The notes: a model not told the origin generated them from the letters alone. DNA of 47,801 nucleotides from Anaerolineaceae bacterium (GCA_035403345.1 DAONEZ010000001.1:1-47801); one strand, 5' to 3'. Counted from the first letter of the stretch, positions 8,229-45,450 are shown. Numbers and translations are program-made.

Positions 8229-8367
8229 TAGAGAGGATCTCCTGTTTTTCCAGCCTTTCGAGCAATTTGGTCCACTGAGATAATTATCCATCAATTATGA
8301 AAAACGAGAGTAGAGAAACGAGAACCGAGATTTGTAGTCCGGAAAAATTGACCAGGTGGTTGTTTTT

Positions 8368-8495
8368 GTGAGACCTGTGTCATCAGTGGTCAGATTTCCC
8401 AGGATCAAGTTCAAACTCCCGGAGTCAAAAAAGCAGACTCAGGGAGATGACTTCGTTCTTCCCCGGGAGTCTGGTTTACGACTCCCGGGGCTTGC
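8368..8495 (+). repeat. copy 1 of a ~128-bp direct repeat carrying two REP-like hairpins
   Basis: gtgagacctgtgtcatcagtggtcagatttcccaggatcaagt...ccccgggagtctggtttacgactcccggggcttgc. Near-identical to 8584..8709 except for a ~12-nt variable core. Confidence 0.9.
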
Positions 8496-8583
8496 ACTAA
8501 TAACGTGACCTCGTGAAAAAGTCGAAAAGAACGAGAAAGAGAATGACATCATGAGCCTCCATCGGTCTTTGATTGGATTATCT

Positions 8584-8709
8584 GTGAGATCTGTGTCATC
8601 AGTGGTCAGATTTCCCAGGATCAAGTGCAAACTCCCGGAGTCAAAAAGCAGACTCCGGGAGGGATATTTAATTTCCCCGGGAGTCTGGTTTACGACTCCC
8701 GGGGCTTGC
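8584..8709 (+). repeat. copy 2 of the ~128-bp direct repeat
   Basis: Contains perfect hairpins CTCCCGGAGTC-N8-GACTCCGGGAG and CCCCGGGAGTC-N8-GACTCCCGGGG. Confidence 0.9.
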
Positions 8710-8731
8710 CCTACACTGGACCAGGTGAAAG

Positions 8732-8761
8732 CTCCCGGAGTATAAGAACATACTCCGGGAG
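8732..8761. repeat. additional REP-like hairpin of the same family
   Basis: CTCCCGGAGTAT-aagaac-ATACTCCGGGAG. Confidence 0.8.
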
Positions 8762-8924
8762 AGATACCAAGTCTTCCCTCAATTGATTTTTGATTACCTG
8801 ATTCCTGATTGCCTGATTACAGATTTCCATTTTTCGTGCTTTTCGTCTAATTTCGATTTTTTTACGTGTTCTGCTTTTTCCCGACATAAAGTTGCGATAA
8901 AATCAACCTGAAAGGAATTCTCCC

Positions 8925-10040
8925 ATGCCAAAAACCAACCCCATTGTGGATGCCTACAGGGCCGAACGCGCCAGCGCACTGCTCTACGAGACCCTGGCGG
9001 ACATAGAAAAAGACACGCGTATCGCCGAGGTATACCGGCGCATCGCCAAAACCGAGATCAAGCACGCTGAGAAATGGGTGCACCAGGCTAAGGACGCCGG
9101 CCTGGTGCTCGAGGAGTACAAACCCGACCTTCGTACACGCATGCTCATCCGCCTGGGCAAGCGTTTTGGCCCGTCCATGATCCTGCCTGCCATGCAGGGC
9201 ATGGAAAAAAGCGGCTCACGGGCTTACCAGAAGATGGAAAATGCCATGGGCATGAGCGCAGAGGAAAGCTCGCATGACCGCCTGTTGACCCAGATCACCT
9301 CCACGGTGCGCGGCGGGATCGCCGGCGGCGTGCTGGCGCAGTTGGAAGGACGCCACCGCTCTGCGGGCGGTAATGCCCTGCGCGCGGCCGTGCTGGGCGC
9401 CAACGACGGGCTGGTCTCCAACCTGAGCCTTGTGATGGGCGTGGCAGGGGCCACCCTGGCCGGTAAAGAAGTACTCATCGCTGGCGTGGCGGGGTTGCTG
9501 GCAGGCGCCATCTCCATGGCACTGGGCGAGTGGCTCTCGGTCACCTCTTCACGCGAACTCTACACCCACCAGGTGGCTACTGAAAAACAGGAGATCGAGA
9601 CCGCTCCGGAAGAAGAAGCGGAAGAGCTGGCACTTATTTATGAATCGCGCGGTCTCACTCGTGAGAATGCGCGCACGCTTGCTAACCAGATCCTGTCCAA
9701 CAAGGACTCCGCGTTGGACACCCTGGCGCGCGAAGAATTGGGCATCGACCCGGACGAACTGGGCGGATCCGCCTGGGAGGCAGCCATTACATCCTTCATT
9801 CTCTTCGCCCTGGGAGCCATCCTGCCGGTAGCGCCCTTCTTCTTCGCCTCCGGCATGGTAGCTGTGTTCTGGAGCATCGGGCTGAGCGTGCTTGGCTTGT
9901 TCGCGCTGGGCGCAGTCATCACGTTATTCACCGGACGCGGCTTGTTGTATTCCGGCTTGCGCATGGTGCTGTTCGGGCTGTTGGCTGCTGGGGTCACCTT
10001 TGGCATCGGGCGACTGATTGGGGTCAGTATCAGTGGATAG
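8925..10040 (+). CDS. VIT1/CCC1-family iron/manganese transporter with N-terminal ferritin-like (erythrin) domain
   Basis: 371 aa. N-terminal four-helix-type segment (AERASALLYETLA...EIKHAEKW). C-terminal VIT1 motifs LRAAVLGANDGLVSNLSLVMGVAG and ISMALGEWLSV, plus TM helices. Confidence 0.85.
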   Translation: MPKTNPIVDAYRAERASALLYETLADIEKDTRIAEVYRRIAKTEIKHAEKWVHQAKDAGLVLEEYKPDLRTRMLIRLGKRFGPSMILPAMQGMEKSGSRAYQKMENAMGMSAEESSHDRLLTQITSTVRGGIAGGVLAQLEGRHRSAGGNALRAAVLGANDGLVSNLSLVMGVAGATLAGKEVLIAGVAGLLAGAISMALGEWLSVTSSRELYTHQVATEKQEIETAPEEEAEELALIYESRGLTRENARTLANQILSNKDSALDTLAREELGIDPDELGGSAWEAAITSFILFALGAILPVAPFFFASGMVAVFWSIGLSVLGLFALGAVITLFTGRGLLYSGLRMVLFGLLAAGVTFGIGRLIGVSISG

Positions 10041-10107
10041 GAAATAAATAACAAAAATAATGGCTACGCGAAATGCTTAGAATCAATATTTCCAGGTAAG
10101 AGAACAA

Positions 10108-10133
10108 TAAACCGGCAGAAGTTCTGCCGGTTT
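10108..10133. terminator. bidirectional hairpin between convergent VIT1 and bfr genes
   Basis: AAACCGGCAGAA-g-TTCTGCCGGTTT, flanked by A/T on both sides. Confidence 0.7.
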
Positions 10134-10150
10134 ATGCTTATTTCGGAAAT

Positions 10151-10618
10151 TTACCCGATCTGCTCGACCAGGTAGTTCTGGATGCCCATTTGCTCGATCT
10201 GGTCCAACTGGGTTTCGATCCAGTCGATATGTGCTTCCTCGTCAGCCAGTATGTCTTCCAGCATCTCGCGCGAACCGTTATCAGCTTCTTCGGTGCACAG
10301 CTTGATCGCGCTATTGTAGGCCGCAATGGCACCCTCTTCAGCGGCATGGTCGCTGGTCAGCATGCCCTCCACTTTTGGGGCGATGTGCATCTTGTTCAGG
10401 TTGCTTACGACCGGCAGCCCTTCCAGGAACAGGATGCGCCCGATGTGCTTTTCAGCATGTTTCATCTCGTCGATGGCGCGCTTCTCGATCTTTTCAGCCA
10501 GTTCGTTGTAACCCCAATCGGCGCACATTTCAGCATGCACCATGTACTGGCTGACAGCGGTGAGCTCATCCGCCAGCAGGAAATTGAGCATGTCGATCAC
10601 TTTTTGAGAGCCTTTCAT
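10151..10618 (-). CDS. bfr: bacterioferritin
   Basis: Track ORF trimmed to ATG 10618 ([31 protein letters not shown]...) with AAGGAGG RBS. About 155 aa. Ferroxidase ligand pattern E..EMKH..E..H and EEAHIDW. Confidence 0.9.
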
Positions 10619-10723
10619 TGAAACCTCCTTAATCTTTAACACCAGTATACCGATTTTTCGGCAAAAGGGCAAAAGAAAATGGCACCCATTCCAACCGGTG
10701 CCATCCACTTTGTGTGAATCCAG

Positions 10724-17005: not shown

Positions 17006-17105
17006 GTGATTAGTAACCAGGGATTAGTGAATAGGGACTACCTGCTTAAGATATTAGGACTCCTGCGCCAAATCACTAATCACTATTCACCAATCACTAT
17101 ACACT
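17006..17105. repeat. imperfect inverted pair of AATCACT-type heptad tracts immediately upstream of the recombinase gene
   Basis: Left arm gtgattagtaaccagggattagtgaatag. Right arm has 5 tandem heptads: AATCACT AATCACT ATTCACC AATCACT ATACACT (17071..17105). GATTAGTGAATAG pairs with CTATTCACCAATC at 12 of 13 positions. Confidence 0.75.
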
Positions 17106-17128
17106 TCCTTCCGGTGTACAATCAAAAT

Positions 17129-18163
17129 ATGCCGCCTGACAAAGAGATCCAGCCCCTGCTGCCCGGAGACCTGGCGCGCCTGATCGGCGAGAGCGCCAAC
17201 CAGGCCGCCGCGCGCACGCGCTTCCAGGAGTACCGTTCGCGCCGCGCCGAGCACACGCTGCGACGGCAGGACGCTGACCTGGCGTTGTTCCACGAGTTCC
17301 TCGAGCTTGCCAACCTGCGCACGGGCGACCTGGCGCAGGACGCGGCTGCCTGGCGACCGGTGACCTGGGGCCTGGTGGAAGCATATGTGAAGTGGCAATT
17401 AAATGAAGGCTACGCGGTAAAAAGCATCAACGTACATCTTTCCACCATTAAAACCTATGCACGCCTGGCCATGCAGTCCGGCACGCTCATGCCGCAGGAA
17501 TACGCCCTGATCCACGCGGTGCAGGGCTACTCGTACCGCGAGCAGGTACGCATCGACCAAAAGCGCCCGGTGCAGCGCATCGGGCTGAAGAAATCCGCGC
17601 CTGTCAAGATCACCAGCGAACAGGCCGCGCAGCTCAAGACCCAGCCCGATACCCCCCAGGGACGGCGCGATGCCCTGCTGATGTGCCTGCTGCTGGAGCA
17701 TGGACTGCGCGTGGGCGAGGTGACGCGCCTGGACGTATCCAACGTGGACCTGGCCGAGCGCGCCTTGCGCTTCTTCCGCCCCAAGGTGAACAAGGAACAG
17801 GTGCACCACCTGACACGCGACACCCTAACCGCCATGACCGCCTACCGTGATTGCGGGGACATGCCCATCAGCGGGGCGCTGTTGCGGCGCAGTAAAAAGA
17901 ACGAAGAACTGGGCTCACCGGGCATGACAGAGCGCGCCGTGACGGCGCGCGTATGCCTGCTGGGCGAGCGCCTGGGCATCCTGGGGCTCAGCGCGCACGA
18001 CTGCCGCCACTTCTGGGCCACCTCCGCCGCGCGCGCCGGAACCGATCCTTTCGTGCTGCAGGAAGCCGGCGGCTGGTCCTCGCTGGCCATGCCGCGCCGC
18101 TACGTGGAAGATAACGAAGTGGCCAACGAGGGTCTCCGCCTGGAAAAACCAGCCCAGGACTGA
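17129..18163 (+). CDS. tyrosine recombinase / phage-integrase-family site-specific recombinase
   Basis: Trimmed to ATG 17129 (MPPDKEIQPLL...). N-terminal SAM-like domain. Catalytic signature GLRVGEV ... HDCRHFWAT ... GGWSS ... RRY. Confidence 0.85.
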   Translation: MPPDKEIQPLLPGDLARLIGESANQAAARTRFQEYRSRRAEHTLRRQDADLALFHEFLELANLRTGDLAQDAAAWRPVTWGLVEAYVKWQLNEGYAVKSINVHLSTIKTYARLAMQSGTLMPQEYALIHAVQGYSYREQVRIDQKRPVQRIGLKKSAPVKITSEQAAQLKTQPDTPQGRRDALLMCLLLEHGLRVGEVTRLDVSNVDLAERALRFFRPKVNKEQVHHLTRDTLTAMTAYRDCGDMPISGALLRRSKKNEELGSPGMTERAVTARVCLLGERLGILGLSAHDCRHFWATSAARAGTDPFVLQEAGGWSSLAMPRRYVEDNEVANEGLRLEKPAQD

Positions 18164-18284: not shown

Positions 18285-19904
18285 ATGCTCGTTCTATTGG
18301 GGTTCAACATACCTTTGCCGCCCGCCTTGTCTTTCCTGGCAAGTAAACCTGCTACTTTCCTGCTCAACCTGGCAGCCTGGTTCCTCATCGCCCTGCTGGT
18401 CAATTTTGTGCTCCTGCGCCTGCTCAAGCGCCTCACACGCCGCATCCCCGGCGAACTGGAGGACATCATTCTTGGCATCGTCAGCACGCCCCTGGTGCTG
18501 CTGGTGCTCCTGGCGGGCATCCGGTCCTCGCTCCACATCCTCGCGCTTTCTGAAGCAGTGCTCAAATGGGAGCGCGTGGTCTTTCTCACCATCCTGGTGC
18601 TGGTTCTCTCGCACGTGCTGGGCCGGCTGATCAAGGAAGTGCTGGTCTTTTACGGGGAGCGCTGGGCGGCGCGCACGGAATCGCGCCTGGATGACGTGCT
18701 GGTACCCGTGCTCAACCTGTTCGGCCCGTTGGTGCTGGTCACCATCGCCGCGCTGATCATCCTGCCGTTGTGGGGAGTCAATGTCACCTCTGTGCTGCTC
18801 GGCGCGGGGGTGTTGGGATTGGTGCTGGGGCTGGCGCTGCAGGAGACCCTGGGCAACATCTTTTCCGGCATCACCATCCTGGTGGAAGCGCCCTTCAAAA
18901 AGCACGACCTCATCCTGCTGCCGGATGGCCGCACCTGCGAGGTGGTGCGCCTGGGCATCCGCTCCACAACCTTCTTTTCGCTGGACGAACAGGCTACCAT
19001 TTACATTCCCAACAAGGTGCTGGAAACCAACACCCTGGTGAACCTCACCAAGCCCACCGCCGAGCAGCGCTATTCCATCGACATCCACGTGCACGCCGGC
19101 AGCGACCTGGCCAGGTTACAGTCGAACATATTGGACATCGCCCGCGGTCACCCTGCTCTGCTGGCGTCGGACACCTCCAAAAAGCTGGAAGCCGTCGAGT
19201 GGCTGGGCAATGCGATCCGGTTGAGGGCGCAACGCCTGCCTGCGGGAGAACCTGCACGGCTGCGGCTTGAGGAAGAAGCGGCTAGGAACCGGAAATCAAT
19301 CGAAAAGCTAGCGCTGGATGGCATGTTCAATCAACACGTGTGCGAATTGCGCGCTTCCCTGGCCAGCCTGCGCACCGAGATCAGCAGCCGCGAGGACGGC
19401 GGTTTGAGCAGCGTGGAACGCCAGGAACTATTCTGCAACTTTATCTCGCCGGTCGAGAACGCTGTGGAGCGCTGCCTGCACGCCGCCCGGGCCTGGCTAG
19501 AGGCGGACGATCCCTGGGTGCAGCCCAACGAAGGCCGCGCCCAGGCACGACTGTGGCAGAAGCGCAACGAGCAACTGCAATTGCATTGGGAACGCCTCAA
19601 AAAAGCCCTGCTGGAGGTCAGCTCACAACGCGAACTGCGCCTGGATGAGAGCACCCTGGATATGCTGAAATGGATCAAGAAGGAGTACAAGATCCCGCCC
19701 AGTTACTGGAAGGACCCGGTGGTGTCTGTGAAAGAGTTGAGCGCTGACAGCGCGCTGCTGCAGCTTTCGTATTACGTGGACAACATCCGCCTGGAACACG
19801 ACGGGCGCCCGCGGCGCGTGCGCGACGAGTTATCGCGCATGATCCACGAACTGCTGCAGGAACCCGCCCGGGAGCAAACGCCCGACCTGCTGATATCAAG
19901 GTAA
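18285..19904 (+). CDS. mechanosensitive ion channel family protein (MscS-like) with long C-terminal helical extension
   Basis: Start ATG 18285 follows GGAGGTGTAAG. TM helices followed by the MscS core LGNIFSGITILVEAPFKKHDLILLPDGRTCEVVRLGIRSTTF. Confidence 0.85.
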   Translation: MLVLLGFNIPLPPALSFLASKPATFLLNLAAWFLIALLVNFVLLRLLKRLTRRIPGELEDIILGIVSTPLVLLVLLAGIRSSLHILALSEAVLKWERVVFLTILVLVLSHVLGRLIKEVLVFYGERWAARTESRLDDVLVPVLNLFGPLVLVTIAALIILPLWGVNVTSVLLGAGVLGLVLGLALQETLGNIFSGITILVEAPFKKHDLILLPDGRTCEVVRLGIRSTTFFSLDEQATIYIPNKVLETNTLVNLTKPTAEQRYSIDIHVHAGSDLARLQSNILDIARGHPALLASDTSKKLEAVEWLGNAIRLRAQRLPAGEPARLRLEEEAARNRKSIEKLALDGMFNQHVCELRASLASLRTEISSREDGGLSSVERQELFCNFISPVENAVERCLHAARAWLEADDPWVQPNEGRAQARLWQKRNEQLQLHWERLKKALLEVSSQRELRLDESTLDMLKWIKKEYKIPPSYWKDPVVSVKELSADSALLQLSYYVDNIRLEHDGRPRRVRDELSRMIHELLQEPAREQTPDLLISR

Positions 19905-19930: not shown

Positions 19931-20125
19931 GTGACCATGGATCGCTGGCGTTCTCTTTTTTCTAATCTTAACCTTGCGGACGGCATCCTGGCGGGGCTGT
20001 TCCTGCTGGTGATGGCGCTGCTGGGCAACAGCCTGGCACCCGGACCGGGTGCACTCATCGGCATCCTGGCAGCGATCGTGCTGCTGGTCATCGCCAAGCG
20101 CAAGCGGGATAAATTACAAAAATAA
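19931..20125 (+). CDS. small hypothetical membrane protein
   Basis: 64-aa ORF with two hydrophobic helices and a KRKRDKLQK tail. No homology call. Start codon uncertain (GTG 19931 or ATG 19937). Confidence 0.4.
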   Translation: MTMDRWRSLFSNLNLADGILAGLFLLVMALLGNSLAPGPGALIGILAAIVLLVIAKRKRDKLQK

Positions 20126-20149: not shown

Positions 20150-20181
20150 TTGACATAACTCTACAGTAAGTGTAGAGTTAT
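20150..20181 (+). promoter_or_regulatory. regulator-gene promoter (TTGACA-N17-TAGAGT) overlapped by dyad ACTCTACA-N5-TGTAGAGT
   Basis: ttgacATAACTCTACAgtaagTGTAGAGTTAT. The dyad (20158..20178) sits 5 bp further from the -35 than in the three target promoters. Confidence 0.65.
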
Positions 20182-20208: not shown

Positions 20209-21039
20209 ATGAGATTCACCATCGGGCAGATCTCCAAACTCACCGGGATATCCGCTAGCGGCATCCGCTATTATGAAGAAGCGGGCGTGATCTCCCCCGT
20301 GCGAGGGAAGAACGGCAAGTACCGCGATTTCTCCATGCACGAGCTGCAACTGCTACTCACGTGCAAGCAATACCGTGATTGCGGGTTTAGTTTGCCCGAA
20401 TCCGTTGAACTGCTGAATAAGTCCGGCGTGCAGGACGTGCGGGATCAACTGGCCACACTGGCAGCGAAATTGAAGCAGACCATCACCCACAATCAACTGC
20501 TATATGAACTCATCGAACAGAAAAGCAATGAACTGGAATGTTTGTTTCACGAAGAGCCCTGCTGCGAATTGATCAATCATCCTGCGCTCTACCGCTTCAA
20601 GCTCTGGCAGCCGGGCGCGCCTGAGGAGATCTGTTTACCAGACGACCAGGTTGTTTATTGGATGAAACTAGCCCCATTCACTGACTCCTGTCTGCTGCTT
20701 TCCGCGGAAAACTTCCTCAACGGCACAGGCGACCTGGAGACGGATTGGGGTATGTCGATCGATGAGCGCTACGCCCAGGGTTTGAACCTGCAAACAGGGC
20801 CGCATGGAGTGTACTTCTCCTCCGGCGAGTGCGTGAAAACAGTGGTCCCGGTTACGGATGACCTGTGCATCCCCTCCGCCACTCTGCAACCTGCGCGCAA
20901 CTTTATGCTGAAACACCGGCTGCAGATGAGAGCCCCGGTTATCTCACGGATGTTTTACCTCACCAACACCAAAAACCGCTTCCAGCGCTACGACGAGCTT
21001 TGGATCCCGGTTGAGCAGGCAATTAAAGGTATTGGATGA
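20209..21039 (+). CDS. MerR-family transcriptional regulator with C-terminal effector-binding (GyrI-like, BmrR-type) domain
   Basis: 276 aa. N-terminal HTH MRFTIGQISKLTGISASGIRYYEEAGVISP..GKYRDFS, coiled-coil linker, ~165-aa C-terminal domain. Confidence 0.85.
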   Translation: MRFTIGQISKLTGISASGIRYYEEAGVISPVRGKNGKYRDFSMHELQLLLTCKQYRDCGFSLPESVELLNKSGVQDVRDQLATLAAKLKQTITHNQLLYELIEQKSNELECLFHEEPCCELINHPALYRFKLWQPGAPEEICLPDDQVVYWMKLAPFTDSCLLLSAENFLNGTGDLETDWGMSIDERYAQGLNLQTGPHGVYFSSGECVKTVVPVTDDLCIPSATLQPARNFMLKHRLQMRAPVISRMFYLTNTKNRFQRYDELWIPVEQAIKGIG

Positions 21040-21857
21040 AATTCAGTATCAGTCAAATCTCCAGGTTAACCGGTCTATCGCCCAGCGGCATCCGCTTTTA
21101 CGAGCGAACAGGCGTCATCTCCCCGCTGCGCAGTCCCCATGGCAAATACCGCGATTTTTCCATGCAGGAGCTGCAGTTGCTGCTCAATTGCAAGCAATAC
21201 CGAGATTGCGGATTCAGCATGAAGGAATCGCTGGAGCTTTTGAACAACTCCACGGTGCAGGATGTGAAAGAGCAATTGACGCTCCAATGCGAAAAACTTG
21301 AACAAATGGTTACCGAAAAACAACTGCTCCTGGAGCTGCTCAAACGCAAGACCCGTGAGATCGACTGCCTGTATCAAGAGCAGCCCTGCATTGAATTGAG
21401 CACCCTGCCCGCTGTGTTCCGCTTCAAACTCTGGCAACCCGGCGCGCAGGAAGGCAGCTTCACGCCCTATAATGAGGTCCTGCGCTGGCTCGAACTTGCG
21501 CCGCTGACCGTCTCCAGCCTGCTCATCCCGCAGGAGAGTTTCCTGCATGGCACGGGGAACCTCCAGGCGGATTGGGGTCTGTCCATTGAGGCCAGTTACT
21601 TGGAGCGCCTCAAGCGATCCACCGGAGCCTTCAGTGTGCATCACCCGCAGGCGATGTGCGTGCACACCTTTGTGAAGGTAAATGTAGATATGAGCATCCC
21701 GGCGGCGGAGTTGGAACCCGCCCGGAAGTTCATTGAGGAGCACCACCTGCAGGTCAACGGGCCGATCATCACAGGTCTGTTCTACCTGACCAACTACGCT
21801 GAAAAGCTCACGCGCATTGACCAGTTGCGCATACCGGTAATTCCTGCCCTTTCGTAA
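21036..21857 (+). CDS. MerR-family transcriptional regulator, paralog of the upstream gene
   Basis: 273 aa. MKFSISQISRLTGLSPSGIRFYERTGVISP..GKYRDFS. ATGA start/stop overlap with the preceding gene. Colinear similarity over the full length. Confidence 0.85.
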   Translation: MKFSISQISRLTGLSPSGIRFYERTGVISPLRSPHGKYRDFSMQELQLLLNCKQYRDCGFSMKESLELLNNSTVQDVKEQLTLQCEKLEQMVTEKQLLLELLKRKTREIDCLYQEQPCIELSTLPAVFRFKLWQPGAQEGSFTPYNEVLRWLELAPLTVSSLLIPQESFLHGTGNLQADWGLSIEASYLERLKRSTGAFSVHHPQAMCVHTFVKVNVDMSIPAAELEPARKFIEEHHLQVNGPIITGLFYLTNYAEKLTRIDQLRIPVIPALS

Positions 21858-21886: not shown

Positions 21887-21917
21887 TTGACTTTACACAT
21901 TGTGTAGAGTGTATGCT
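21887..21917 (+). promoter_or_regulatory. MerR-type promoter TTGACT-N19-TATGCT containing dyad ACTTTACA-N5-TGTAGAGT
   Basis: ttgACTTTACAcattgTGTAGAGTgtatgct. The -10 ends 83 nt before ATG 22000. Confidence 0.75.
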
Positions 21918-21999: not shown

Positions 22000-23976
22000 A
22001 TGAGCAAGCCGAAGAAATTGAATCTGTCACGTCGAGATTTCATCAAAGGGGCAGCCATGGCAACCGGAGCAGGCATCCTGGCCGGCTGCGCACCCAAGGT
22101 GGCTGGAACTCTGACACCGACTGAGGCTCCTGCTGGACCGTCAGCACCAGCAGCCGCTGAACCGGGCGGCGGTGGAATGCCGTTTGGTAACCCTGCCACA
22201 CCTGCCACTGCTCCAGCCGGTTATGTCCTGGGATACACCAGCCAGGTGGATTGGCTGGGCAAGCCCCCTGTCATCGCCGACGCAGATATCGCTGATACAA
22301 AAGATGTCGAATTTTTAGTCATTGGTGCCGGGCATGCTGGTCTAATGGCTGCATTGAGTGCCGTGGAATTGGGTAAGAAGACCGCCATAATTGAAAAACG
22401 GGACGAAGCTGGATTCTATACCGATTACTGGCACCGCGTGGGTGAGGATATCGGTCATGTGAACTCCAAATGGTTGATTGACCGCGGTTATGGTCCTTAT
22501 GATACCGGTGAGATCGTGGATGAGTTCGTCAAGCGTTCCGGCGGACGGGTTGACCCGCGCCTTATCAAAATGTATGTTGAAAATTCCGGCGCTATGTTCG
22601 ACCATATGGTCGAAATCTACAAATCTTATGAAGATTTGCGCAAGGAACGCTTCAGCAAAGTGGAATTCACATATATTGGCGAAAATCCAAGTACAGTCAC
22701 ATACGATTTCTCGAACATGATGAGCGAGGAAATGCTCTTCAACCAGACTCAAAAAGGTCTCAAAGGCAGCGATTATCCCATTGAACTTAACGGATATAAG
22801 ACCTGGCCGACCAATGCCATGTTCCAGGGACCTGTGCTGCATCAACCCGTGATGCCGTTTGTGTCTGCTTTGCGCTATTTTGAAACGTTCATGGATCAGA
22901 AGGTGAAAGACCTGGGCGGTGAATACTACTACGAGCACACCGCAATCGTGCTCACCCAGGATGAAAGCGGCGCAGTCACAGGTGCGGTCGTCCAGAACAA
23001 AGAGGGGAAATACATCAAATTCGCGGCCTCCAAGGGTGTCCTGGTTGCCACTGGTGACTTCGGCGCCAACTCTGATATGTGCTGGGCGCTGATCAATGAC
23101 CAGATGGAGTGGGCGGAACGCGCCGGCAAAGCCAGGGGGCAGCTGGCTGGTATGTACCAGGATGGAGCTGGTCACAAAATGTGCTGCTGGGCTGGCGGAA
23201 TGATCGAACCGCTTCCGCGTCCCACCATGGGCATGGCCTCTGCAGCCGGTGGACCGTGGGGCATGACCCCCATGCTGCAACTTAATGCCGATGCAAAGCG
23301 CTACGCCAACGAAGCAGCTATCTGCTGGCTTGGACACGTAGCCTTAAGGCAACCCAAAGGTTTGTTGACATCTGTGACCGACAGCAAGTACATGGATTCG
23401 ATCACAATTGCAGGGCTCGATCACGGTGGACCCAACTTTGGACGCGGCGACCTGTGGGAGAAGGATTTCCAGGAAGATATGGCCAAGGTAATGGGTACCG
23501 GTTCCGCTGGTTCCCCTGTTCGAGGAATCACCGTCGCCGAGCGAAACGCCTCCAAGGTTTATGGCGCTAACACGCTCGAGGAACTGGCTGGTTACCTGGG
23601 GTATGAAGGCGCACTGGCAAAGACCTTCGTTGACTCGATCAACCGTTACAATGAGCTGTGCAAATCCGGGTTTGATGCTGACTACGGCAAGGATCCGAAG
23701 GCATTGATTCCCATCGACACTCCGCCGTTCTACGGCGTGGTAGGTCAGAACTCTGGACAAATGTCTATCGGACTGGTCACCCTGGCGGGTATGCTTACGG
23801 ATGAGAACCTGAACGTACTCAATAAGGAAGGCAAACCCATAAAGGGTCTCTATGTGGCCGGCAACACGTTGGGCGGTCGTTATGGCGAAGCGTATGTCAC
23901 GCCGTACGCAGGCAACTCGGTCGGCATGGCGCTCACGCACGGCTGGCTGGTCGGGAAAACCATCGCCGCATTGTAA
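22000..23976 (+). CDS. Tat-exported lipoprotein, FAD-dependent oxidoreductase (FAD_binding_2 / fumarate-reductase-KstD superfamily-like)
   Basis: 658 aa. Twin-arginine motif SRRDFIKGAA, lipobox LAGC, Pro/Ala/Gly linker, dinucleotide fold FLVIGAGHAGLMAA, C-terminal GLYVAGNTLGG...GNSVGMALTHG. Confidence 0.85.
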   Translation: MSKPKKLNLSRRDFIKGAAMATGAGILAGCAPKVAGTLTPTEAPAGPSAPAAAEPGGGGMPFGNPATPATAPAGYVLGYTSQVDWLGKPPVIADADIADTKDVEFLVIGAGHAGLMAALSAVELGKKTAIIEKRDEAGFYTDYWHRVGEDIGHVNSKWLIDRGYGPYDTGEIVDEFVKRSGGRVDPRLIKMYVENSGAMFDHMVEIYKSYEDLRKERFSKVEFTYIGENPSTVTYDFSNMMSEEMLFNQTQKGLKGSDYPIELNGYKTWPTNAMFQGPVLHQPVMPFVSALRYFETFMDQKVKDLGGEYYYEHTAIVLTQDESGAVTGAVVQNKEGKYIKFAASKGVLVATGDFGANSDMCWALINDQMEWAERAGKARGQLAGMYQDGAGHKMCCWAGGMIEPLPRPTMGMASAAGGPWGMTPMLQLNADAKRYANEAAICWLGHVALRQPKGLLTSVTDSKYMDSITIAGLDHGGPNFGRGDLWEKDFQEDMAKVMGTGSAGSPVRGITVAERNASKVYGANTLEELAGYLGYEGALAKTFVDSINRYNELCKSGFDADYGKDPKALIPIDTPPFYGVVGQNSGQMSIGLVTLAGMLTDENLNVLNKEGKPIKGLYVAGNTLGGRYGEAYVTPYAGNSVGMALTHGWLVGKTIAAL

Positions 23977-24000
23977 TTGCATCAAACTAAAAGTCGTTCC

Positions 24001-24034
24001 GGGGACTGCTGAGATTTCAGCAGTCCCCTTTTTT
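24001..24034 (+). terminator. rho-independent terminator
   Basis: GGGGACTGCTGA-gatt-TCAGCAGTCCCC followed by TTTTTT. Confidence 0.85.
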
Positions 24035-24079
24035 ATCAAAGCCAGTTGAAGAAAATAAAAAAATGAATCAAGAAACCAC

Positions 24080-24110
24080 TTGACTCTACAGTAGCTGTAG
24101 AGTCTATAAA
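24080..24110 (+). promoter_or_regulatory. MerR-type promoter TTGACT-N19-TATAAA containing dyad ACTCTACA-N5-TGTAGAGT
   Basis: ttGACTCTACAGtagCTGTAGAGTCtataaa (23-bp perfect palindrome). The -10 ends 82 nt before ATG 24192. Confidence 0.8.
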
Positions 24111-24191
24111 TATAGATGCAGGGGTGCGATTTTTGTAGATTCCGCCTCTTGCGGTGTTCCTGTTCCACATTCCATTCTGTCGGAGGAGAAG

Positions 24192-25919
24192 ATGAACAAG
24201 AAAGTAGATCTATCCCGTCGTAACTTTATGAAGGGGGCGGCGCTGGCTACCGGCGCCGGGATCCTGGCAGGCTGTGCACCCAAGACATCCACCCAGGCTC
24301 CAGCTGCACCCCAGGCACCGGTTGCTGCTGGTGCGCTGGACTGGCTGGGAACTGAGCCGGAGATCAAGGACATCGCAGAGACCGTTGAGAGCGATGTAAT
24401 CGTCATCGGCGCTGGCACCGGCGGTGCGTACGTGGCAGCCTCCTGCCTGGAAAAAGGGCTGAAGGTCGTTTTGCTGGAAAAGAACGACAAGCCCAGCACA
24501 GTACGCAACGACTGGGGTGCCATCGGTTCGAAGTGGCAGATCGAAGGCGGTGCCAAGGGATTGGATAAAGCCACCATCCTGCATTATCACGCCATGTATT
24601 GCGCCAACCGCATCGACCAGCGTTTGCCGCGCATCTGGGCGGATGAGAGCGCTGAAGCGATCGATTGGATCGGCGACCTCATCATCAGCAAGGGCGGCAT
24701 GTTCGATTGGGAAGGCGGCTACGAACCCGATTTTGAGCACACATCCTCCTATCCCAAGTTCCCCACCGGTCATAGCGCTTTCTGGCCTGGTCCTGACCTG
24801 AGCACCGCCAAGATGATGAAGGAATATATCGAGGGTATGGGCGGCAAGTACTATTTTGAGACACCTTTTGTGAAATTTGAGCATGAGGGTAAGAAGGTCA
24901 AAGCCGCCATTGGCAAGACCAAAGATGGCAAGTACATCCGCTTCGTGGGTAAAAAAGGCATCGTGCTGGCTACCGGCGGCTACCAGGGCAATGTGGAGAT
25001 GCTCAAGGCACTACAGCCGCAGGACCTGATGGTGATGAGCCCCATGGCAGGCCAACCCTCTCACACCGGTGACGGTCACAAAGCCTGCCTGTGGATGGGC
25101 GCTGCGTTTGACGAGTGCCACACCAGCATGATCTTCGACCGCTGGGGACTGCTGCCAAACGAGGTGACCGCCACCCAAACTGTTCCAACTTTGTTCTGGC
25201 TGGGCTCACAGCCCTGGCTCAAGGTGAACCTGCTGGGCGAGCGTTTCTGTAACGAGTCGCAGCCGTACGACTTCATCGTACACGCCGCTGCGCGCCAGCC
25301 GGGTAAGTGCTACGCCGCCATCATGGATTCTACCTGGTTCCAACAGGTACAGGAATTCCAGACAGTAGGCTGCAGCCGTATCTTCCCCTTCCCCAATGGC
25401 AGCCCGAACGATCAGCCCTTCTATGTTCCGCCTGGCACCGACCTGAAAGCCATTGAAGAGAACGGCAAGAAGATCTGGCAGGGCTACATCGACAGCGGTC
25501 ACCTGCAGCAGGCAGATACCCCTGAGGAATTGGCCAAAAAGTTGAACATCCCTGAGGCTACCTTCGCCGCAACCTTCAAGCGCTACAACGAACTGGCCAA
25601 GGCAGGCGAGGACCAGGACTTCTTCAAGGATTCCTACCGCTTCCTGCCGCTTGAGAAACCCCCTTATTACGGCATTCGCCTGACCGGCATGATCCTCTCC
25701 ACCATGGATGGCATCCGCATCGATACGCAAATGCGCCCCCTGGATGAGGAAAACGTACCGTTCGAGGGTCTACATGTCATCGGAGACACCTCAGGCAGTT
25801 ACTTCGCCCACACTTACCCCAACCTGTTCACCGGCTACGCCAACGGTCGCACCACCGTGTACGCCCGCCGCGTAGCGCGCATCCTGGCTGGCGAGCCCGT
25901 GGATCTGCCGAAAGCATAA
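24192..25919 (+). CDS. Tat-exported lipoprotein, FAD-dependent oxidoreductase (paralog 2)
   Basis: 575 aa. SRRNFMKGAALATGAGILAGC, VIVIGAGTGGAYVAA, ATGGYQGN, GLHVIGDTSGSYFAHTYPNLFTGYANGRT. Confidence 0.85.
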   Translation: MNKKVDLSRRNFMKGAALATGAGILAGCAPKTSTQAPAAPQAPVAAGALDWLGTEPEIKDIAETVESDVIVIGAGTGGAYVAASCLEKGLKVVLLEKNDKPSTVRNDWGAIGSKWQIEGGAKGLDKATILHYHAMYCANRIDQRLPRIWADESAEAIDWIGDLIISKGGMFDWEGGYEPDFEHTSSYPKFPTGHSAFWPGPDLSTAKMMKEYIEGMGGKYYFETPFVKFEHEGKKVKAAIGKTKDGKYIRFVGKKGIVLATGGYQGNVEMLKALQPQDLMVMSPMAGQPSHTGDGHKACLWMGAAFDECHTSMIFDRWGLLPNEVTATQTVPTLFWLGSQPWLKVNLLGERFCNESQPYDFIVHAAARQPGKCYAAIMDSTWFQQVQEFQTVGCSRIFPFPNGSPNDQPFYVPPGTDLKAIEENGKKIWQGYIDSGHLQQADTPEELAKKLNIPEATFAATFKRYNELAKAGEDQDFFKDSYRFLPLEKPPYYGIRLTGMILSTMDGIRIDTQMRPLDEENVPFEGLHVIGDTSGSYFAHTYPNLFTGYANGRTTVYARRVARILAGEPVDLPKA

Positions 25920-25940
25920 TCATACAGAACTTACCCAAAA

Positions 25941-25973
25941 TCAGCCCTCTTTCCCGAGAGGGTTGATTTTTTT
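25941..25973 (+). terminator. rho-independent terminator
   Basis: TCAGCCCTCT-ttcccg-AGAGGGTTGA (one G-U pair) followed by TTTTTTT. Confidence 0.8.
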
Positions 25974-26055
25974 CCAGGCATCAGATCCGATGCCATTTGC
26001 CAATATCAGGGCAGAATGTCATCATTTATTAGAGAAAGAACTCACCACAGTATCC

Positions 26056-26086
26056 TTGACTCTACAGTAACTGTAGAGTTTACAAT
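26056..26086 (+). promoter_or_regulatory. MerR-type promoter TTGACT-N19-TACAAT containing dyad ACTCTACA-N5-TGTAGAGT
   Basis: ttGACTCTACAGtaaCTGTAGAGTttacaat. The -10 ends 80 nt before ATG 26166. Confidence 0.8.
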
Positions 26087-26165
26087 AACGCGCTTCTAAT
26101 AGGATCTATGCCAGATCCGCTTATCAGTAGCAAGCCCAATTTTTATCCCTATATGGAGGAGCAAG

Positions 26166-27890
26166 ATGAGCAAAATAATAGATCAGTCCCGTCGTAACTT
26201 CATGAAAGGCGCAGCCCTGGCTACCGGCGCAGGTATCCTGGCCGGATGCGCGCCCAAAGTAGCCGCACCCGCTCCCGCGGCCACTGATGCACCGGCTGCT
26301 GCAGGTCCGGTGGATTGGCTAGGTGTTGAGCCCGAGATCGGCGATGTGGCCGAAACCGTGGAAACCGATGTCGTCGTGATTGGCGCTGGTACCGGCGGTG
26401 CTTACACAGCCGCGTCCTGCCTTGAAAAGGGTCTGCAGGTCGTGATCCTTGAAAAAGGTAAAACTGTCAGCACCCTGCGCAATGACTGGGGTTCCGTGGA
26501 TTCAAAATGGCAGCAGGCTGAAGGCGTGAAGCTCGACAAAGCCGCTATCCTGCACGTTCATTCCATGTACTCAGCCAACCGCATCGACCAACGCCTGCCC
26601 AAGATTTGGTTGGAAGAAAGCGGCGCTGCCATCACCTGGATCGGCGAGCTTCTCGAGAGCAAAGGCGCTAAATTCTATTACGAAGGCGGCTACGAACCCG
26701 ATTTCTCCCCCACCACCTACCCCAAGTTCCCCACCGGTCACAGCGGCGACTTCCCCAAGGGCACCGATGGCGCTTCCATCATGAAAGCGTACATCGAGGA
26801 ACTCGGCGGCAAGTATTACTTTGAGACCCCCTTCGTCAAGTTCGAACATGACGGCAAAAAAGTAACCGCCGCCATCGCCCAGAACAAAGAAGGCAAGTAC
26901 ATTCGTTTCATCGGCAAAAAAGGCATCGTCCTTTCCACCGGTGGTTACCAGGGCAACGTGGACATGCTCAAAGCCCTGCAGCCCGCTGATGTCATGCTCA
27001 TGATGCCCCCCGCTCCTGGCCCCAACTCTGGTGACGGCATCAAGGCTTGCCTGTGGATGGGCGCTGCCATGGACGAAACCCATGCCTCCATGCTGTTCGA
27101 CCGCATGGGATTGCTCCCCAACGAAACCCCTGCCAACATGACCGTGCCCGGGTTCTTCTGGCTCGGATCACAGCCCTGGCTCAAGGTGAACCTGCTGGGC
27201 GAGCGCTTCGTCAACGAATCTGGCCCCTATGATTTCATCCTGCATGCCGCTGCCCGCCAGCCCGGCGCAACCTACTGCGCCATCATGGACGCCGATTGGT
27301 TCAAACAGGTACAGCAGTACCAGACCATGGGCTGTTCCCGCATCTATCCCTTCCCCAATGGCAGCCCCAATGACGTCTTCAAGACCGGCGGACTGGAATC
27401 CACAGGGACCGACCTGGCAGTCATCGAACAGGAATGGACCGCCATCCTGGAAGGGTTGAAGACAAGCGGACACCTGCAGCAGGCCGATACCCCCGAAGAA
27501 CTGGCCGCCAAGCTGAACATCCCCGCGGAAACCTTTGCAGCCACCGTTGCGCGATACAATGAACTGGCCGCCGCCGGCGAAGACACTGACTTCTACAAGG
27601 ATTCCTACCGCCTGATGCCGCTCGCCAAGGCACCCTACATGGGCATCCGCCTGACCGGCTGGCTGCTCTCCACCCTCGATGGCATCCGCATCGACACCCA
27701 GATGCGCCCCATGGACGCCAACAACGTGCCCTTCGAAGGCCTGCATTTGGTCGGTGATTCCTCCGGCAGCTACTTCGCCCACACCTACCCCAACCTGTTC
27801 ACCGGGTATGCCAACGGCCGCACCACCACCTTTGCCCGCCGCGTAGCCCGCGTCCTGGCTGGTGAGCCTGTTGAATTGCCGAAAGCCTAA
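26166..27890 (+). CDS. Tat-exported lipoprotein, FAD-dependent oxidoreductase (paralog 3, close to paralog 2)
   Basis: 574 aa. Colinear with 24192..25919, roughly 70% identical by eye. Same Tat, lipobox and FAD motifs. Confidence 0.85.
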   Translation: MSKIIDQSRRNFMKGAALATGAGILAGCAPKVAAPAPAATDAPAAAGPVDWLGVEPEIGDVAETVETDVVVIGAGTGGAYTAASCLEKGLQVVILEKGKTVSTLRNDWGSVDSKWQQAEGVKLDKAAILHVHSMYSANRIDQRLPKIWLEESGAAITWIGELLESKGAKFYYEGGYEPDFSPTTYPKFPTGHSGDFPKGTDGASIMKAYIEELGGKYYFETPFVKFEHDGKKVTAAIAQNKEGKYIRFIGKKGIVLSTGGYQGNVDMLKALQPADVMLMMPPAPGPNSGDGIKACLWMGAAMDETHASMLFDRMGLLPNETPANMTVPGFFWLGSQPWLKVNLLGERFVNESGPYDFILHAAARQPGATYCAIMDADWFKQVQQYQTMGCSRIYPFPNGSPNDVFKTGGLESTGTDLAVIEQEWTAILEGLKTSGHLQQADTPEELAAKLNIPAETFAATVARYNELAAAGEDTDFYKDSYRLMPLAKAPYMGIRLTGWLLSTLDGIRIDTQMRPMDANNVPFEGLHLVGDSSGSYFAHTYPNLFTGYANGRTTTFARRVARVLAGEPVELPKA

Positions 27891-27915: not shown

Positions 27916-27950
27916 TCAGCCCTTGCCTATCAGGCAGGGGCTGATTTTTC
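27916..27950 (+). terminator. rho-independent terminator
   Basis: TCAGCCCTTGCCT-atc-AGGCAGGGGCTGA followed by TTTTT. Confidence 0.8.
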
Positions 27951-33738: not shown

Positions 33739-34737
33739 TTAATTTCCCGGGACGGACTCTTTCCTCAGTGACTTGCGCACAAGCTTGACCAGTTCCACAA
33801 CCGTGTCAACCACGGTCACCACCAGGGCAATGCCGAAGGCAAGGCGGAAGCTTTCCATGCCCAGCACCTGGATGTTTTCAGCAATGTCCTCGCCAAACTT
33901 TACCAGGCTGGGGAACAATCCACTGGAGCCGTGCGCCGCCAGCCAGGCAGTATGCCCCTGGTAAAGCAGGACCAACACGCCGATGCTCAACAGGTTGACT
34001 GCCACCTGGGCGACACGGCTGCCGGTCGTCCAACGCCCCTGCCACAACAAGTACACATTCAATCCGATGCCGGCCAGCAGCGCCAGGATGATCCAGCCCA
34101 TGTATTGTGCGATGACCGGGTCAGGGTAGAACGCGCCGCCCGGGAACGTGATGAAGCCAATTTTGCCGGGGAAAGCCGCCAGCAAGCCCAGGAAAATGCT
34201 GCCAAAAACGATGCCCACGATCTGCTCGGATGGTTTGACTTTTTCATCCTCCTCGAACGCCGGCAAGGTTTTCGGATCCCATGCCTCTTTTTCCTTCAGG
34301 TCGGGATTCACTCCGAAGTGCTGCAGGATGAGGAAAACGATCACCACGGAACCCAGGGCAGCAGGGATGCTATTGACCAGCCCGGCCCAGGCGTTCCAGC
34401 CTGCGGCATGCGCCTCGCCAGCCAACAACCCCACGGCAATCGCAACAAGTTGCCCGCCGATCGTTGCTGCCAGGACGATCAGAGCCACCATCCGGAAGAC
34501 TGGATAGAGCTCCGGTCCGATCAGGTACTGCCGGCCGCCGGTGTAAGAAGCTGCCACCTTTGTGGGTTCCCCGGTCTCCTTGAGCAGCTCTGCTACATCC
34601 TCCTCGCTGGCCTGTCCGCCGAAGCGCTCTTCGAGGGTGTCGTTCAGGTGCGACCGCAGTTCGGCCAGGATGTCCGCGCGGTTCTTCGCGGGCAGGCGGC
34701 GACCCACTGCATGTAAATAACGTTCAACTAGGTTCAT
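33739..34737 (-). CDS. membrane protein with N-terminal HAAS/DUF1700-type domain (PadR-associated sensor/anti-regulator)
   Basis: MNLVERYLHAVGRRLPAKNRADILAELRSHLNDTLEE followed by about 6 TM helices. Lies 12 nt downstream of the PadR gene. Confidence 0.75.
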   Translation of the reverse strand: MNLVERYLHAVGRRLPAKNRADILAELRSHLNDTLEERFGGQASEEDVAELLKETGEPTKVAASYTGGRQYLIGPELYPVFRMVALIVLAATIGGQLVAIAVGLLAGEAHAAGWNAWAGLVNSIPAALGSVVIVFLILQHFGVNPDLKEKEAWDPKTLPAFEEDEKVKPSEQIVGIVFGSIFLGLLAAFPGKIGFITFPGGAFYPDPVIAQYMGWIILALLAGIGLNVYLLWQGRWTTGSRVAQVAVNLLSIGVLVLLYQGHTAWLAAHGSSGLFPSLVKFGEDIAENIQVLGMESFRLAFGIALVVTVVDTVVELVKLVRKSLRKESVPGN

Positions 34738-41813: not shown

Positions 41814-41868
41814 TCCACCATACGACAATTAATCCTAAATATTGGTGTGGACAGATCGATCCTCTTGC

Positions 41869-41897
41869 TTGACTTTGCTGGAAAAATCCCGTATTAT
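41869..41897 (+). promoter_or_regulatory. sigma70-like promoter TTGACT-N17-TATTAT for array gene B
   Basis: Read directly. Confidence 0.6.
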
Positions 41898-41949
41898 TAT
41901 GATAATAAATATCTTAATACTCTTTATTATCGTGAGAATTGGAGGAGAT

Positions 41950-42915: not shown

Positions 42916-43259
42916 ACTCCAGTTTTAGTGCTTCGTCAATACAAAGGAGGCGGACTTGTTTCCCGCCTCCTATTCAAATATTGACCTCGATGGCAACTAT
43001 CCATTCACCCATAAGCGGTTAACTGGATTGAAAGTTCACATCTGATATTGATAAATTAACACACCCTTCATCGCTCTCCTTCAATACTTCTACGGGTACC
43101 TGGCATAAGTAACACATGGGCTGCCGGGCAAGCCAAGGTTTCCAATTGCATCCTCTCTATTGGTTTTTAAAAGCCGTCTTTACGTCGAATGCGAAAAAGG
43201 GTGATTCTACCCTTATTGTAATTTCATGGAGTTCAAATCCAGTCTACTTGCCCGACAGA

Positions 43260-43288
43260 TTGTTTTTCGCCAGTTAAAGTCGTATTAT
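43260..43288 (+). promoter_or_regulatory. candidate promoter TTGTTT-N17-TATTAT for array gene C
   Basis: Weak -35. Followed 6 nt later by GGAGTCCAGTT, as in gene A. Confidence 0.4.
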
Positions 43289-43388
43289 TTAATTGGAGTC
43301 CAGTTACCCTCACCGTTGCCACATAAATTTTACGAACCAGGACCATCGACCCGAAATGAAAATATGGATACCTGTTTGGGAGAAAAAC

Positions 43389-44372: not shown

Positions 44373-44427
44373 AACGGTTATAATACCTCTGCCTGGCATC
44401 TGATCTTTTCGACCGGAGGTAAACTTT

Positions 44428-45429: not shown

Positions 45430-45450
45430 GTACCGGGGAAGGAACCTTCA

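Follow-up and report, generated by a model that had tools for sequence, protein, structure and literature searches.

What is the role of three consecutive genes for secreted flavin-dependent enzymes in an anaerobic bacterium, and from where would these enzymes receive electrons if the genes have no redox partner in cis? The question is raised by a stretch of 47,801 nt of DNA from an Anaerolineaceae bacterium (GCA_035403345.1, DAONEZ010000001.1:1-47801; the whole stretch is called 'the window' below), where an initial annotation, made from the sequence alone, had pointed to three tandem genes of putative lipoproteins with twin-arginine translocation (Tat) signals at positions 22000-27890. The model that we consider probable, with moderate confidence, is that the three genes form an array inducible by ligands and encode extracytoplasmic flavin reductases (A, B and C).

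The three open reading frames (ORFs) were confirmed on the + strand by the ORF listing: reductase A at 22000-23976 (658 aa), reductase B at 24192-25919 (575 aa) and reductase C at 26166-27890 (574 aa). The encoded proteins share one layout, with a Tat signal, a lipobox cysteine (Cys30 in A, Cys28 in B and C), a tether and a FAD_binding_2 domain (PF00890). The Pfam scan detected this domain with E-values from 3e-29 to 1e-32; the scores of the three proteins (102.7, 110.8 and 113.9 bits) are above the gathering cut-off of 20.4 bits, and the matches cover profile positions ~1-412 out of 414. A, B and C are thus members of the FAD_binding_2 superfamily of soluble fumarate reductases and 3-ketosteroid dehydrogenases (KstD), as had been proposed from sequence motifs. 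The motifs themselves, GxGxxG, TGG(F/Y)..N and GL(Y/H)V(A/I)G(N/D), had been listed with slight errors: A reads TGDFGAN and C reads GLHLVGD. Neither the CxxCH motif nor PF04205 (FMN_bind) was seen in A, B or C by sequence reading and the Pfam scan; no haem, FMN_bind or Fe-S module is located within any of the three proteins.

In pairwise alignment, B and C are 73.5% identical, near the ~70% estimated earlier by eye, and A shares 36.5-37.2% of residues with B and C; the divergence of A, noticed earlier as well, places it by sequence in a separate subfamily (37% identical to B/C). The Pro/Ala/Gly tether of A is indeed present, as annotated; its excess, given as ~60 aa, was over-estimated, as the whole tether has ~55 aa, only ~32 aa over the ~20-aa Pro/Ala linker in B and C. 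The remaining extra length of A comes from insertions within the catalytic and capping domains.

We also compared the proteins with curated NCBIfam models (including those of VprA, KstD, flavocytochrome c and TcuA). No equivalog cut-off was reached by A, B or C, all models scoring far below. The top model for all three proteins was VprA (NF053717), with 120.3, 144.5 and 174.7 bits against a cut-off of 600; the KstD equivalogs NF009478, NF009479 and NF005882 scored 97-120 bits against cut-offs of 788-793. The profile search that had been suggested as a check for placement in a well-characterized orthologous group therefore found none.

The N-termini of A, B and C follow the pattern ..SRR(D/N)F(I/M)KGAA..ATGAGILAGC, in which a perfect twin-arginine motif S-R-R-x-F-x-K is followed by a short h-region and the lipobox L-A-G-C (residues 27-30 in A, 25-28 in B and C). 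The TIGR01409 model (TAT_signal_seq) was passed by all three isolated N-termini, with 29.8, 27.0 and 23.7 bits at a cut-off of 16.7; Pfam TAT_signal scored at or slightly below its gathering cut-off. The RR motif is present in 110 of 112 full-length homologs of C, and 83 of the 112 have, after the RR, a strict lipobox (pattern [LVI][ASTVI][GAS]C ending the signal h-region). The lipobox is kept in most homologs of the Anaerolineae clade (at least 66% identity), while a few others end in ..QGC or ..PGC, and most homologs further off have sites of the signal-peptidase-I type. Since the Tat and lipobox N-terminus is conserved across homologs of C, we do not attribute it to chance. The analysis supports the prediction that Tat exports A, B and C as lipid-anchored FAD enzymes; together, PF00890, Tat signal and lipobox bear out the initial annotation, which saw here surface-anchored flavoenzymes. 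They are of the expanded secreted flavin-reductase kind known in gut anaerobes. No tat gene was found among the Pfam-scanned ORFs of the window, and the genes of Lgt and Lsp are not in the window either.

The nearest sequences with solved structures are those of UrdA (6t85, E = 1e-20), Ifc3/Fcc3 and KstD of two organisms. An AlphaFold2 (AF2) model of C, built from 66 homologs (pLDDT 87.8), predicts a two-domain fold made of a Rossmann FAD domain and a capping domain. Foldseek searches with this model returned UrdA as the top match (E = 1e-31, TM-score of 0.84 on the target), followed by Fcc3, KstD1, AcmB and cyclohexanone dehydrogenase, with 16-22% identity and E-values to 1e-23.

For active-site mapping we used HMMER alignments to 4c3x, 7p18, 1qo8 and 6t85, along with the published residue numbering of Fcc3 and KstD1; conservation of C residues was taken from the 66-sequence alignment. 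Arg402 of Fcc3, in motif ITTRD (ERRD in UrdA), is the proton donor, and Tyr318 (in motif NESLPYD), Tyr487 and Gly491 are catalytic residues of KstD1. Tyr355 of C, in motif NESGPYD, aligns with both Fcc3 Arg402 and KstD1 Tyr318. In the 4c3x alignment Y541 and G547 of B/C match Tyr487 and Gly491, and in the alignments to 1qo8 and 6t85 Fcc3 His504 and Arg545 are replaced in B/C by S502 and L544. Y541 and G547 are invariant among the 66 sequences, and Y355 is at least 90% conserved. A Cgr2-like Fe-S cluster was ruled out, the only invariant cysteines among the 66 homologs being C295 and C390.

Read as sets, the Arg/His residues of fumarate and urocanate reductases are missing from B and C, and the KstD set Tyr318/Tyr487/Gly491 is present in both. 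In A, the position of R402 is occupied by Ile/Cys, so that A has neither this Arg nor the Tyr of KstD1 Y318; the invariant residues of its subfamily include R434, E438, Y628 and Y632. Judged by these residues, B and C are not fumarate or urocanate reductases: with the Arg/His set replaced by Tyr/Tyr/Gly, dicarboxylates are unlikely substrates. The catalytic layout of B and C appears to resemble that of KstD and of the 'Tyr' clades in Little et al., to which cinnamate and other reductases belong. The most likely substrates would be enones or vinyl-/propenyl-aromatics rather than dicarboxylates.

The lack of a redox partner gene in or beside the block, reported initially, holds for the whole window: Pfam scans of ~36 ORFs, essentially every sizeable ORF in the 47.8 kb, rule out a partner hidden elsewhere in it. 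The donor, left open at that time, can be narrowed by orthologs situated next to a cytochrome gene or near genes of ApbE and FMN_bind proteins. Downstream of the gene of P0017, a protein of Chloroflexi HGW-10 79% identical to C, a 210-aa protein starts at ~105 bp; it has an N-terminal transmembrane (TM) helix, five CxxCH motifs and the Pfam domain Cytochrom_NNT (NapC/NirT family). Relatives of this cytochrome were found in metagenome contigs at 40 loci, 17 of which have a same-strand reductase homolog within ~650 bp; these 17 include 6 of the 11 loci with full 6-kb flanks. At two loci (L019 and L031), the cytochrome is paired with direct B/C-type orthologs, 77-84% identical over the fragments present; an ortholog adjoins a NapC/NirT cytochrome at L007/L008 as well (cytochrome at L007:11819-12451). 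At another locus (L006), coding for P0002 (83% identical to C), there are three PF00890 genes and, ~8 kb away, an operon of TetR, ApbE and a membrane-anchored FMN_bind protein.

On these grounds a quinol dehydrogenase of the NapC/NirT type, encoded in trans, is the most likely donor, and an FMN carrier flavinylated by ApbE a less likely one. Cgr1/Cgr2 of Eggerthella lenta is an example of an enzyme paired with a separate cytochrome. Another is Mrd, a Tat-exported FAD enzyme supplied with electrons by the tetrahaem cytochrome Mcc, which is a separate protein (PMC4427408).

How the genes are controlled can be read from the intergenic regions. Each reductase gene has a promoter with a 19-nt spacer on the + strand. 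The A promoter (21887..21917) has TTGACT at 21887-21892, spacer ttacacattgtgtagagtg and TATGCT at 21912-21917; the B promoter (24080..24110) has TTGACT with the −35 box at 24080, spacer ctacagtagctgtagagtc and TATAAA; the C promoter (26056..26086) has TTGACT with the −35 box at 26056, spacer ctacagtaactgtagagtt and TACAAT. The spacer of each contains an 8-3-8 dyad, CTNTACAS-N3-STGTAGAG, and a GGAGG Shine-Dalgarno sequence comes after each promoter. Over-long 19-bp spacers with a central dyad are a hallmark of MerR-activated promoters such as bmr and merT. We therefore classify the reductase promoters as MerR-type and the dyads as predicted operators.

The window has exactly four such dyads, while 0 are expected in shuffled sequences. 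The fourth is situated just upstream of a merR operon, over its promoter (20150..20178, + strand), which suggests that the operon is autoregulated; this promoter has TTGACA, a candidate −10 box TAGAGT inside the operator and a 17-bp spacer. The operators differ in their half-sites. The operator of B (CTCTACAG-TAG-CTGTAGAG, 24084-24102) and that of C (CTCTACAG-TAA-CTGTAGAG, 26060-26078) are of the 'ACAG/CTGT' form ('ACAG' subtype), the operator of A (CTTTACAC-ATT-GTGTAGAG, 21891-21909) is of the 'ACAC/GTGT' form ('ACAC' subtype), and the merR auto-operator (CTCTACAG-TAA-GTGTAGAG, 20159-20177) combines the two forms as a hybrid, its left half-site being B/C-type and its right one A-type. The hybrid operator, along with the presence of two MerR paralogs, suggests either split specificity or a heterodimer.

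A scan for the sigma-70 consensus, restricted to spacers of 16-18 bp, missed the real promoters and gave a match count equal to the shuffled expectation. Strong intrinsic terminators, each with a hairpin and a U-tract, follow all three genes on the + strand: after A at 24001..24035 (a 12-bp GC-rich stem and a T run; dG −25 kcal/mol, z −6.8), after B at 25937..25976 (dG −20.5 kcal/mol, z −4.8) and after C at 27916..27950 (dG −28.4 kcal/mol, z −5.9). As far as sequence features go, each reductase gene is thus a separate unit with promoter, Shine-Dalgarno sequence, ORF and terminator. This was read in all three intergenic regions and agrees with the independent promoters and terminators, and with the separate tuning of the copies, put forward in the initial annotation; overlooked there were the MerR regulators and the dyad promoters with 19-bp spacers, which add a mechanism of control.

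The regulators are encoded upstream of A on the + strand: MerR1 (20209..21039, 276 aa) and MerR2 (21036..21857, 273 aa), 53.8% identical to each other. The genes are probably co-transcribed, because the start of the second overlaps the stop of the first by 4 nt. Pfam MerR_1 (PF13411), a helix-turn-helix (HTH) domain, was detected in both (E = 2e-12 for MerR1 and 2e-11 for the other). The AF2 model of MerR1 (pLDDT 88.6) has the HTH, a 40-residue coiled-coil helix (residues 74-113) and an alpha/beta C-domain, which is GyrI-like by predicted fold. Its best full-length matches in PDB are BmrR structures (3iao, 3q5s and 1exi; TM-scores of 0.60-0.64, E = 6e-11), followed by BrlR and EcmrR. BmrR, BrlR and EcmrR are ligand-sensing MerR activators with GyrI-like domains, and we model MerR1 and MerR2 as predicted BmrR-like ligand-sensing activators. 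The family of these regulators is a narrow one: a search of 5.8 billion proteins gave 23 clusters. A literature search on MerR, 19-bp spacers and GyrI returned nothing relevant.

The wing of MerR1 (PVRGKNGKYR) is similar to that of the MerR protein of locus L016, where the operator is of the 'ACAC' subtype; the wing of MerR2 (PLRSPHGKYR) is similar to that of MerR of locus L015, where it is 'ACAG'. An assignment of MerR1 and MerR2 to the operator subtypes, hypothesized here, draws on this wing similarity and on the one extra 'ACAC' case (L016).

C has its best homologs (66-83% identity) among proteins that are unnamed or come from metagenome-assembled genomes of Anaerolineaceae, Anaerolineae, Bellilinea and Chloroflexi. 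DNA nearly identical to this locus was found in at least 20 metagenome runs from wastewater, sludge and sediment. At ~50-56% identity, homologs of C come from Clostridia, Christensenellales, Spirochaetia and Eggerthellaceae, and several relatives (Clostridia, ~55% identity) have a fused FMN_bind domain (PF04205). Homologs of A show the same taxonomic pattern: environmental sequences at 55-75%, Raoultibacter at 46% and FMN_bind-fused proteins of Clostridia at 49%. A search of one literature library found no paper linking Anaerolineae with these reductases.

The control element is shared with other loci. The sequence TTGACTNTACA-N5-TGTAGAGT was found 110-150 bp upstream of orthologs at five loci (L001, L013/L014, L015 and L016) that represent four distinct contexts. 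In the four element loci with gene calls (L001 has no gene calls), a MerR gene adjoins the reductase gene. The element was not found at the TetR-linked locus L006, at the MalT/LuxR-linked loci L007 and L017, or at L018. By this comparison, a module of MerR, operator and reductase is conserved in other Anaerolineae.

Synteny extends beyond the module. Locus L015 matches the window in genes of an ABC transporter, a recombinase, MscS, a small ORF, MerR, one reductase, YdjC, APH and GNAT; the partly syntenic L013 has VIT1, ferritin, recombinase, MerR and two reductases. The numbers of MerR and reductase genes at the syntenic site are thus 1 + 1 (L015), 1 + 2 (L013) and 2 + 3 (the window). In contigs of a sister strain (L009 and L010), the flanks are 96.7-98.5% identical to the window at the nucleotide level and the middle gene is a different one: positions 7947-9754 of each contig region, compared with 24107-25919 of the window, encode a 570-aa protein 66% identical to B and 70.7% identical to C. 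Nucleotide homology with L009/L010 stops at 24107, just past the B operator. This looks like a cassette replacement through recombination at a shared promoter/operator. Since copy number varies (1, 2 or 3) and the sister strain has another middle gene, the array appears to evolve through duplications and the replacement of cassettes.

At L006 (10001-16602), L017 and L018, another two or three Tat-type PF00890 genes are found within ~20 kb, and each adjoins a different type of regulator (TetR, MalT/LuxR or two-component). This hints at genome-wide reductase arsenals in Anaerolineae.

The model can now be stated in full. A small, probably planar or aromatic compound would enter the cytoplasm and bind the GyrI-like domain of a MerR dimer, which in the ligand-bound form would untwist the over-long spacer and switch on the cognate reductase gene. 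Since the operators of B/C ('ACAG') and of A ('ACAC') differ, MerR1 and MerR2 may divide this labour. The enzymes would bind FAD in the cytoplasm, fold there and be exported by Tat; acylation of the lipobox cysteine would then hold them on the outer face of the membrane. Electrons would pass from the quinol pool through a membrane-anchored NapC/NirT multihaem cytochrome, encoded elsewhere in the genome, to the enzymes; the less likely route would use an ApbE-flavinylated FMN-binding protein, likewise encoded elsewhere. Hydride of FADH2 would be transferred to the beta-carbon of an activated C=C bond, presumably of an enone or a vinyl-/propenyl-aromatic compound and not of a dicarboxylate, with a proton supplied by Tyr; in B and C, Y355 (KstD1 Y318, Fcc3 R402) and Y541 (KstD1 Y487) would serve this step. 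Over time the array would grow and change via duplication and cassette replacement.

Several observations weigh against this model. Cytochrome, Fe-S, FMN_bind, ApbE and quinone-related genes are lacking among the Pfam-scanned ORFs of the window, and most ortholog loci (L013, L015, L016, L017 and L018) are also without a partner in cis; the cytochrome assigned to A, B and C comes solely from their orthologs. The active-site mapping uses sequence alignments at ~20% identity, not superposed structures, and the alignment is unreliable in the region of Fcc3 H365. The chemistry of A may differ, as A has no Tyr at the R402/Y318 position, and the KstD-like residues would agree with either a reductase or an oxidative dehydrogenase. 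The GyrI-like assignment of the regulators is a fold-based one only (TM-score of ~0.6), as the Pfam GyrI-like domain had no match in the C-terminal domains of the MerR proteins even at E = 10. Contigs of wastewater and sludge metatranscriptomes contain fragments of all genes at low depth and span the intergenic terminators; this evidence is thin, since DNA carry-over or read-through is possible and no transcript ends are resolved.

The similarity to KstD raises an alternative that we regard as unlikely, yet as the strongest competitor: A, B and C may be oxidative dehydrogenases, akin to KstD or cyclohexanone dehydrogenase, that desaturate an extracellular substrate, forming a C=C bond beside its carbonyl group, and deliver the electrons to the membrane chain via a cytochrome or quinone, so that the array would serve catabolism and not act as an electron sink. 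B and C do possess equivalents of KstD1 Y318, Y487 and G491; KstD and cyclohexanone dehydrogenase are among the top fold matches, KstD-type NCBIfam scores are close to that of VprA, and the organism is also seen in metagenomes of activated sludge, a habitat that may offer oxygen or nitrate. However, cultured Anaerolineae are strict anaerobic fermenters and characterized KstDs are cytoplasmic. Both the nearest fold (UrdA) and the top curated model (the vinyl phenol reductase VprA) belong to reductases, the FMN_bind-fused relatives and NapC/NirT-adjacent orthologs match the wiring of respiratory reductases, and the characterized secreted members of the superfamily are reductases (bioRxiv 10.1101/2022.12.26.521950). 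Somewhat less probable again is that the enzymes are reductases with no dedicated protein partner, using reduced free flavins or soluble shuttles for alkene detoxification or for redox balancing that conserves no energy. The 47.8 kb without a partner, the ortholog loci of which most have none in cis, and the match of the MerR1 fold to BmrR, a type of regulator that classically controls responses to toxic compounds, would all agree with it. It is disfavoured by the recurrence of cytochrome genes next to orthologs and relatives, by the homologs with fused FMN_bind domains and by lipid anchoring, which suits contact with a membrane-bound donor.

The Tat and lipobox features themselves could in principle arise from mis-called starts of ordinary cytoplasmic FAD oxidoreductases, an explanation to which the modest Pfam TAT_signal scores, no better than the gathering cut-off, lend some colour. 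We consider it extremely improbable. All three N-termini pass TIGR01409, a GGAGG Shine-Dalgarno sequence stands 6-8 nt ahead of each ATG, the RR motif is nearly universal among the homologs (110/112) with a strict lipobox in most members of the Anaerolineae clade, and a Pro/Ala linker follows the lipobox cysteine; in the AF2 model of C, residues 1-45 are disordered before the folded domain. A start-codon artefact is effectively excluded.

Returning to the inducible reductase array, we tentatively propose a wider combination of its parts, which has a limited chance of being right in all of them: that uncultured Anaerolineae of sludge, commonly regarded as plain fermenters, respire organic acceptors with a diversifying cassette array under a MerR pair of split specificity. 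In this wiring a multihaem quinol dehydrogenase of the NapC/NirT type would pass electrons straight to FAD-only, lipid-anchored reductases that have no haem or FMN relay of their own. The array would have one, two or three copies, genes would be replaced at the level of strains with the breakpoint located at the operator, and control would depend on 'ACAG' versus 'ACAC' specificities that meet on the hybrid auto-operator, possibly through a heterodimer.

Other genes of the window deserve brief description. The tyrosine recombinase (17006-18163, + strand; Phage_integrase and a SAM-like N-terminal domain) is syntenic in L009/L010, L013/L014 and L015, and for this reason is regarded as a conserved chromosomal gene and not as a marker of recent insertion. 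An integron or mobile-element origin of the array, an idea prompted by the recombinase, is accordingly unlikely given the synteny in L013 and L015; moreover, housekeeping genes lie between the recombinase and the array, and the 'cassettes' come with individual promoters and terminators instead of attC sites. The gap from the MscS gene to the merR promoter contains a 62-aa hydrophobic ORF (19937-20125, + strand; MDRWRSLFSNLNLADGILAGLFLLVMALLGNSLAPGPGALIGILAAIVLLVIAKRKRDKLQK), and small ORFs are called at the corresponding site in L009/L010 (62 aa), L013/L014 (68 aa) and L015 (77 aa). At 8925-10708, the gene of a 371-aa iron transporter of the VIT1 family, which is extended at the N-terminus by a long segment, lies beside a divergently oriented ferritin gene; the pair is syntenic with L013/L014.

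At 41842-46519 (+ strand) there are four tandem paralogs of 333-389 aa, each with a 3keto-disac_hyd (DUF1080)/Laminin_G-like domain; a 326-aa ORF without a Pfam match precedes them, and the block possibly begins at 40781. These are probably another local expansion, of secreted glycan-related proteins. A gene for a HAAS-domain protein (33739-34737, − strand) adjoins that of its upstream neighbour, a PadR-family regulator (called in L009 at 18585-18935); the two are an anti-sigma-like sensor pair that appears unrelated to the reductase array.

Few bacteria of digesters and wastewater plants are as abundant, or as poorly understood, as Anaerolineae. If the enzymes are inducible respiratory reductases, they would provide an electron sink beyond fermentation, with a possible role in the transformation of aromatic or enone pollutants. 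A MerR gene with a 31-bp promoter makes a compact module of sensor, promoter and enzyme that could be put to use, and the ligand of the sensor should hint at the substrate of the enzyme. With the strain variant added to A, B and C, there is a natural set of four related reductases for structure-function work on the Tyr-type active site, and the path from a NapC/NirT cytochrome to an FAD-only lipoprotein is offered as a hypothesis on the donor. The enzyme class as such is already known in the form of secreted multi-paralog PF00890 arsenals with adjacent regulators (bioRxiv 10.1101/2022.12.26.521950), and its picture, described in gut anaerobes and proteobacteria, is unchanged. New are the lineage and habitat, the lipoprotein tethering, the control by BmrR-type MerR proteins with two operator subtypes and the strain-level turnover of cassettes.

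These arsenals are the closest parallel. The secreted reductases CrdA-D, CirA-D, IrdA and UrdA of gut Eggerthellaceae, Erysipelotrichaceae and Burkholderiaceae were described by Little et al. as PF00890 proteins with adjacent regulators and with clades having Tyr in place of the active-site Arg (bioRxiv 10.1101/2022.12.26.521950). The array shares with them PF00890 after an export signal, several paralogs, a regulator adjoining the reductase and the Tyr-for-Arg clades, and Eggerthellaceae homologs are 53% identical to C (P0120) and 46% identical to A (P0233). The differences are the host (Chloroflexota/Anaerolineae of wastewater, sludge and sediment), the anchoring by lipobox and Pro/Ala tether, and the regulators: BmrR-type MerR proteins with 19-bp spacers here, LuxR-type transmembrane regulators or two-component systems there.

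UrdA of Shewanella oneidensis (6t85-6t88) and Fcc3/Ifc3 (1qjd, 1qo8) are the best matches in sequence and fold, and share with A, B and C the architecture of FAD and capping domains and the extracytoplasmic location (predicted for A, B and C). However, identity is ~20%, and A, B and C have neither the N-terminal FMN_bind domain of UrdA nor the tetrahaem domain of Fcc3; of the Fcc3 residues, R402, H504 and R545 become Y355, S502 and L544 in B/C. KstD (4c3x, 7p18) and cyclohexanone dehydrogenase (8am3) have the same fold, and B and C keep the equivalents of Tyr318, Tyr487 and Gly491 as well as the NES.PYD motif; in contrast, identity is 16-20%, B and C are predicted Tat-exported lipoproteins of an anaerobe, and the reaction is likely the opposite one. 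VprA (NF053717) is the top curated model, matched by C over almost the full length (residues 66-552, 174.7 bits), yet the scores of 120-175 bits are to be read against the 600-bit equivalog cut-off, and VprA is cytoplasmic.

Mrd/Mcc of Geobacter sulfurreducens AM-1 (PMC4427408) offers an FAD-only Tat flavoprotein with a separate cytochrome gene, a pair as at P0017. Here, no cytochrome is encoded in cis in the window and the enzymes are lipid-anchored; moreover, the ortholog-adjacent cytochrome is membrane-anchored and NapC/NirT-like, while Mcc is soluble and periplasmic. Unlike Cgr2, the C-type enzymes, with two invariant Cys only, have no Fe-S cluster. On the side of control, BmrR, EcmrR and BrlR share with the MerR proteins of the window the predicted full-length fold (TM-scores of 0.60-0.64 to BmrR) and the 19-bp spacer with a central dyad. 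Identity to these regulators is 11-16%, the Pfam GyrI-like domain goes undetected, and the putative targets are reductase genes instead of efflux pumps, controlled by tandem paralogs through two operator subtypes and a hybrid auto-operator.

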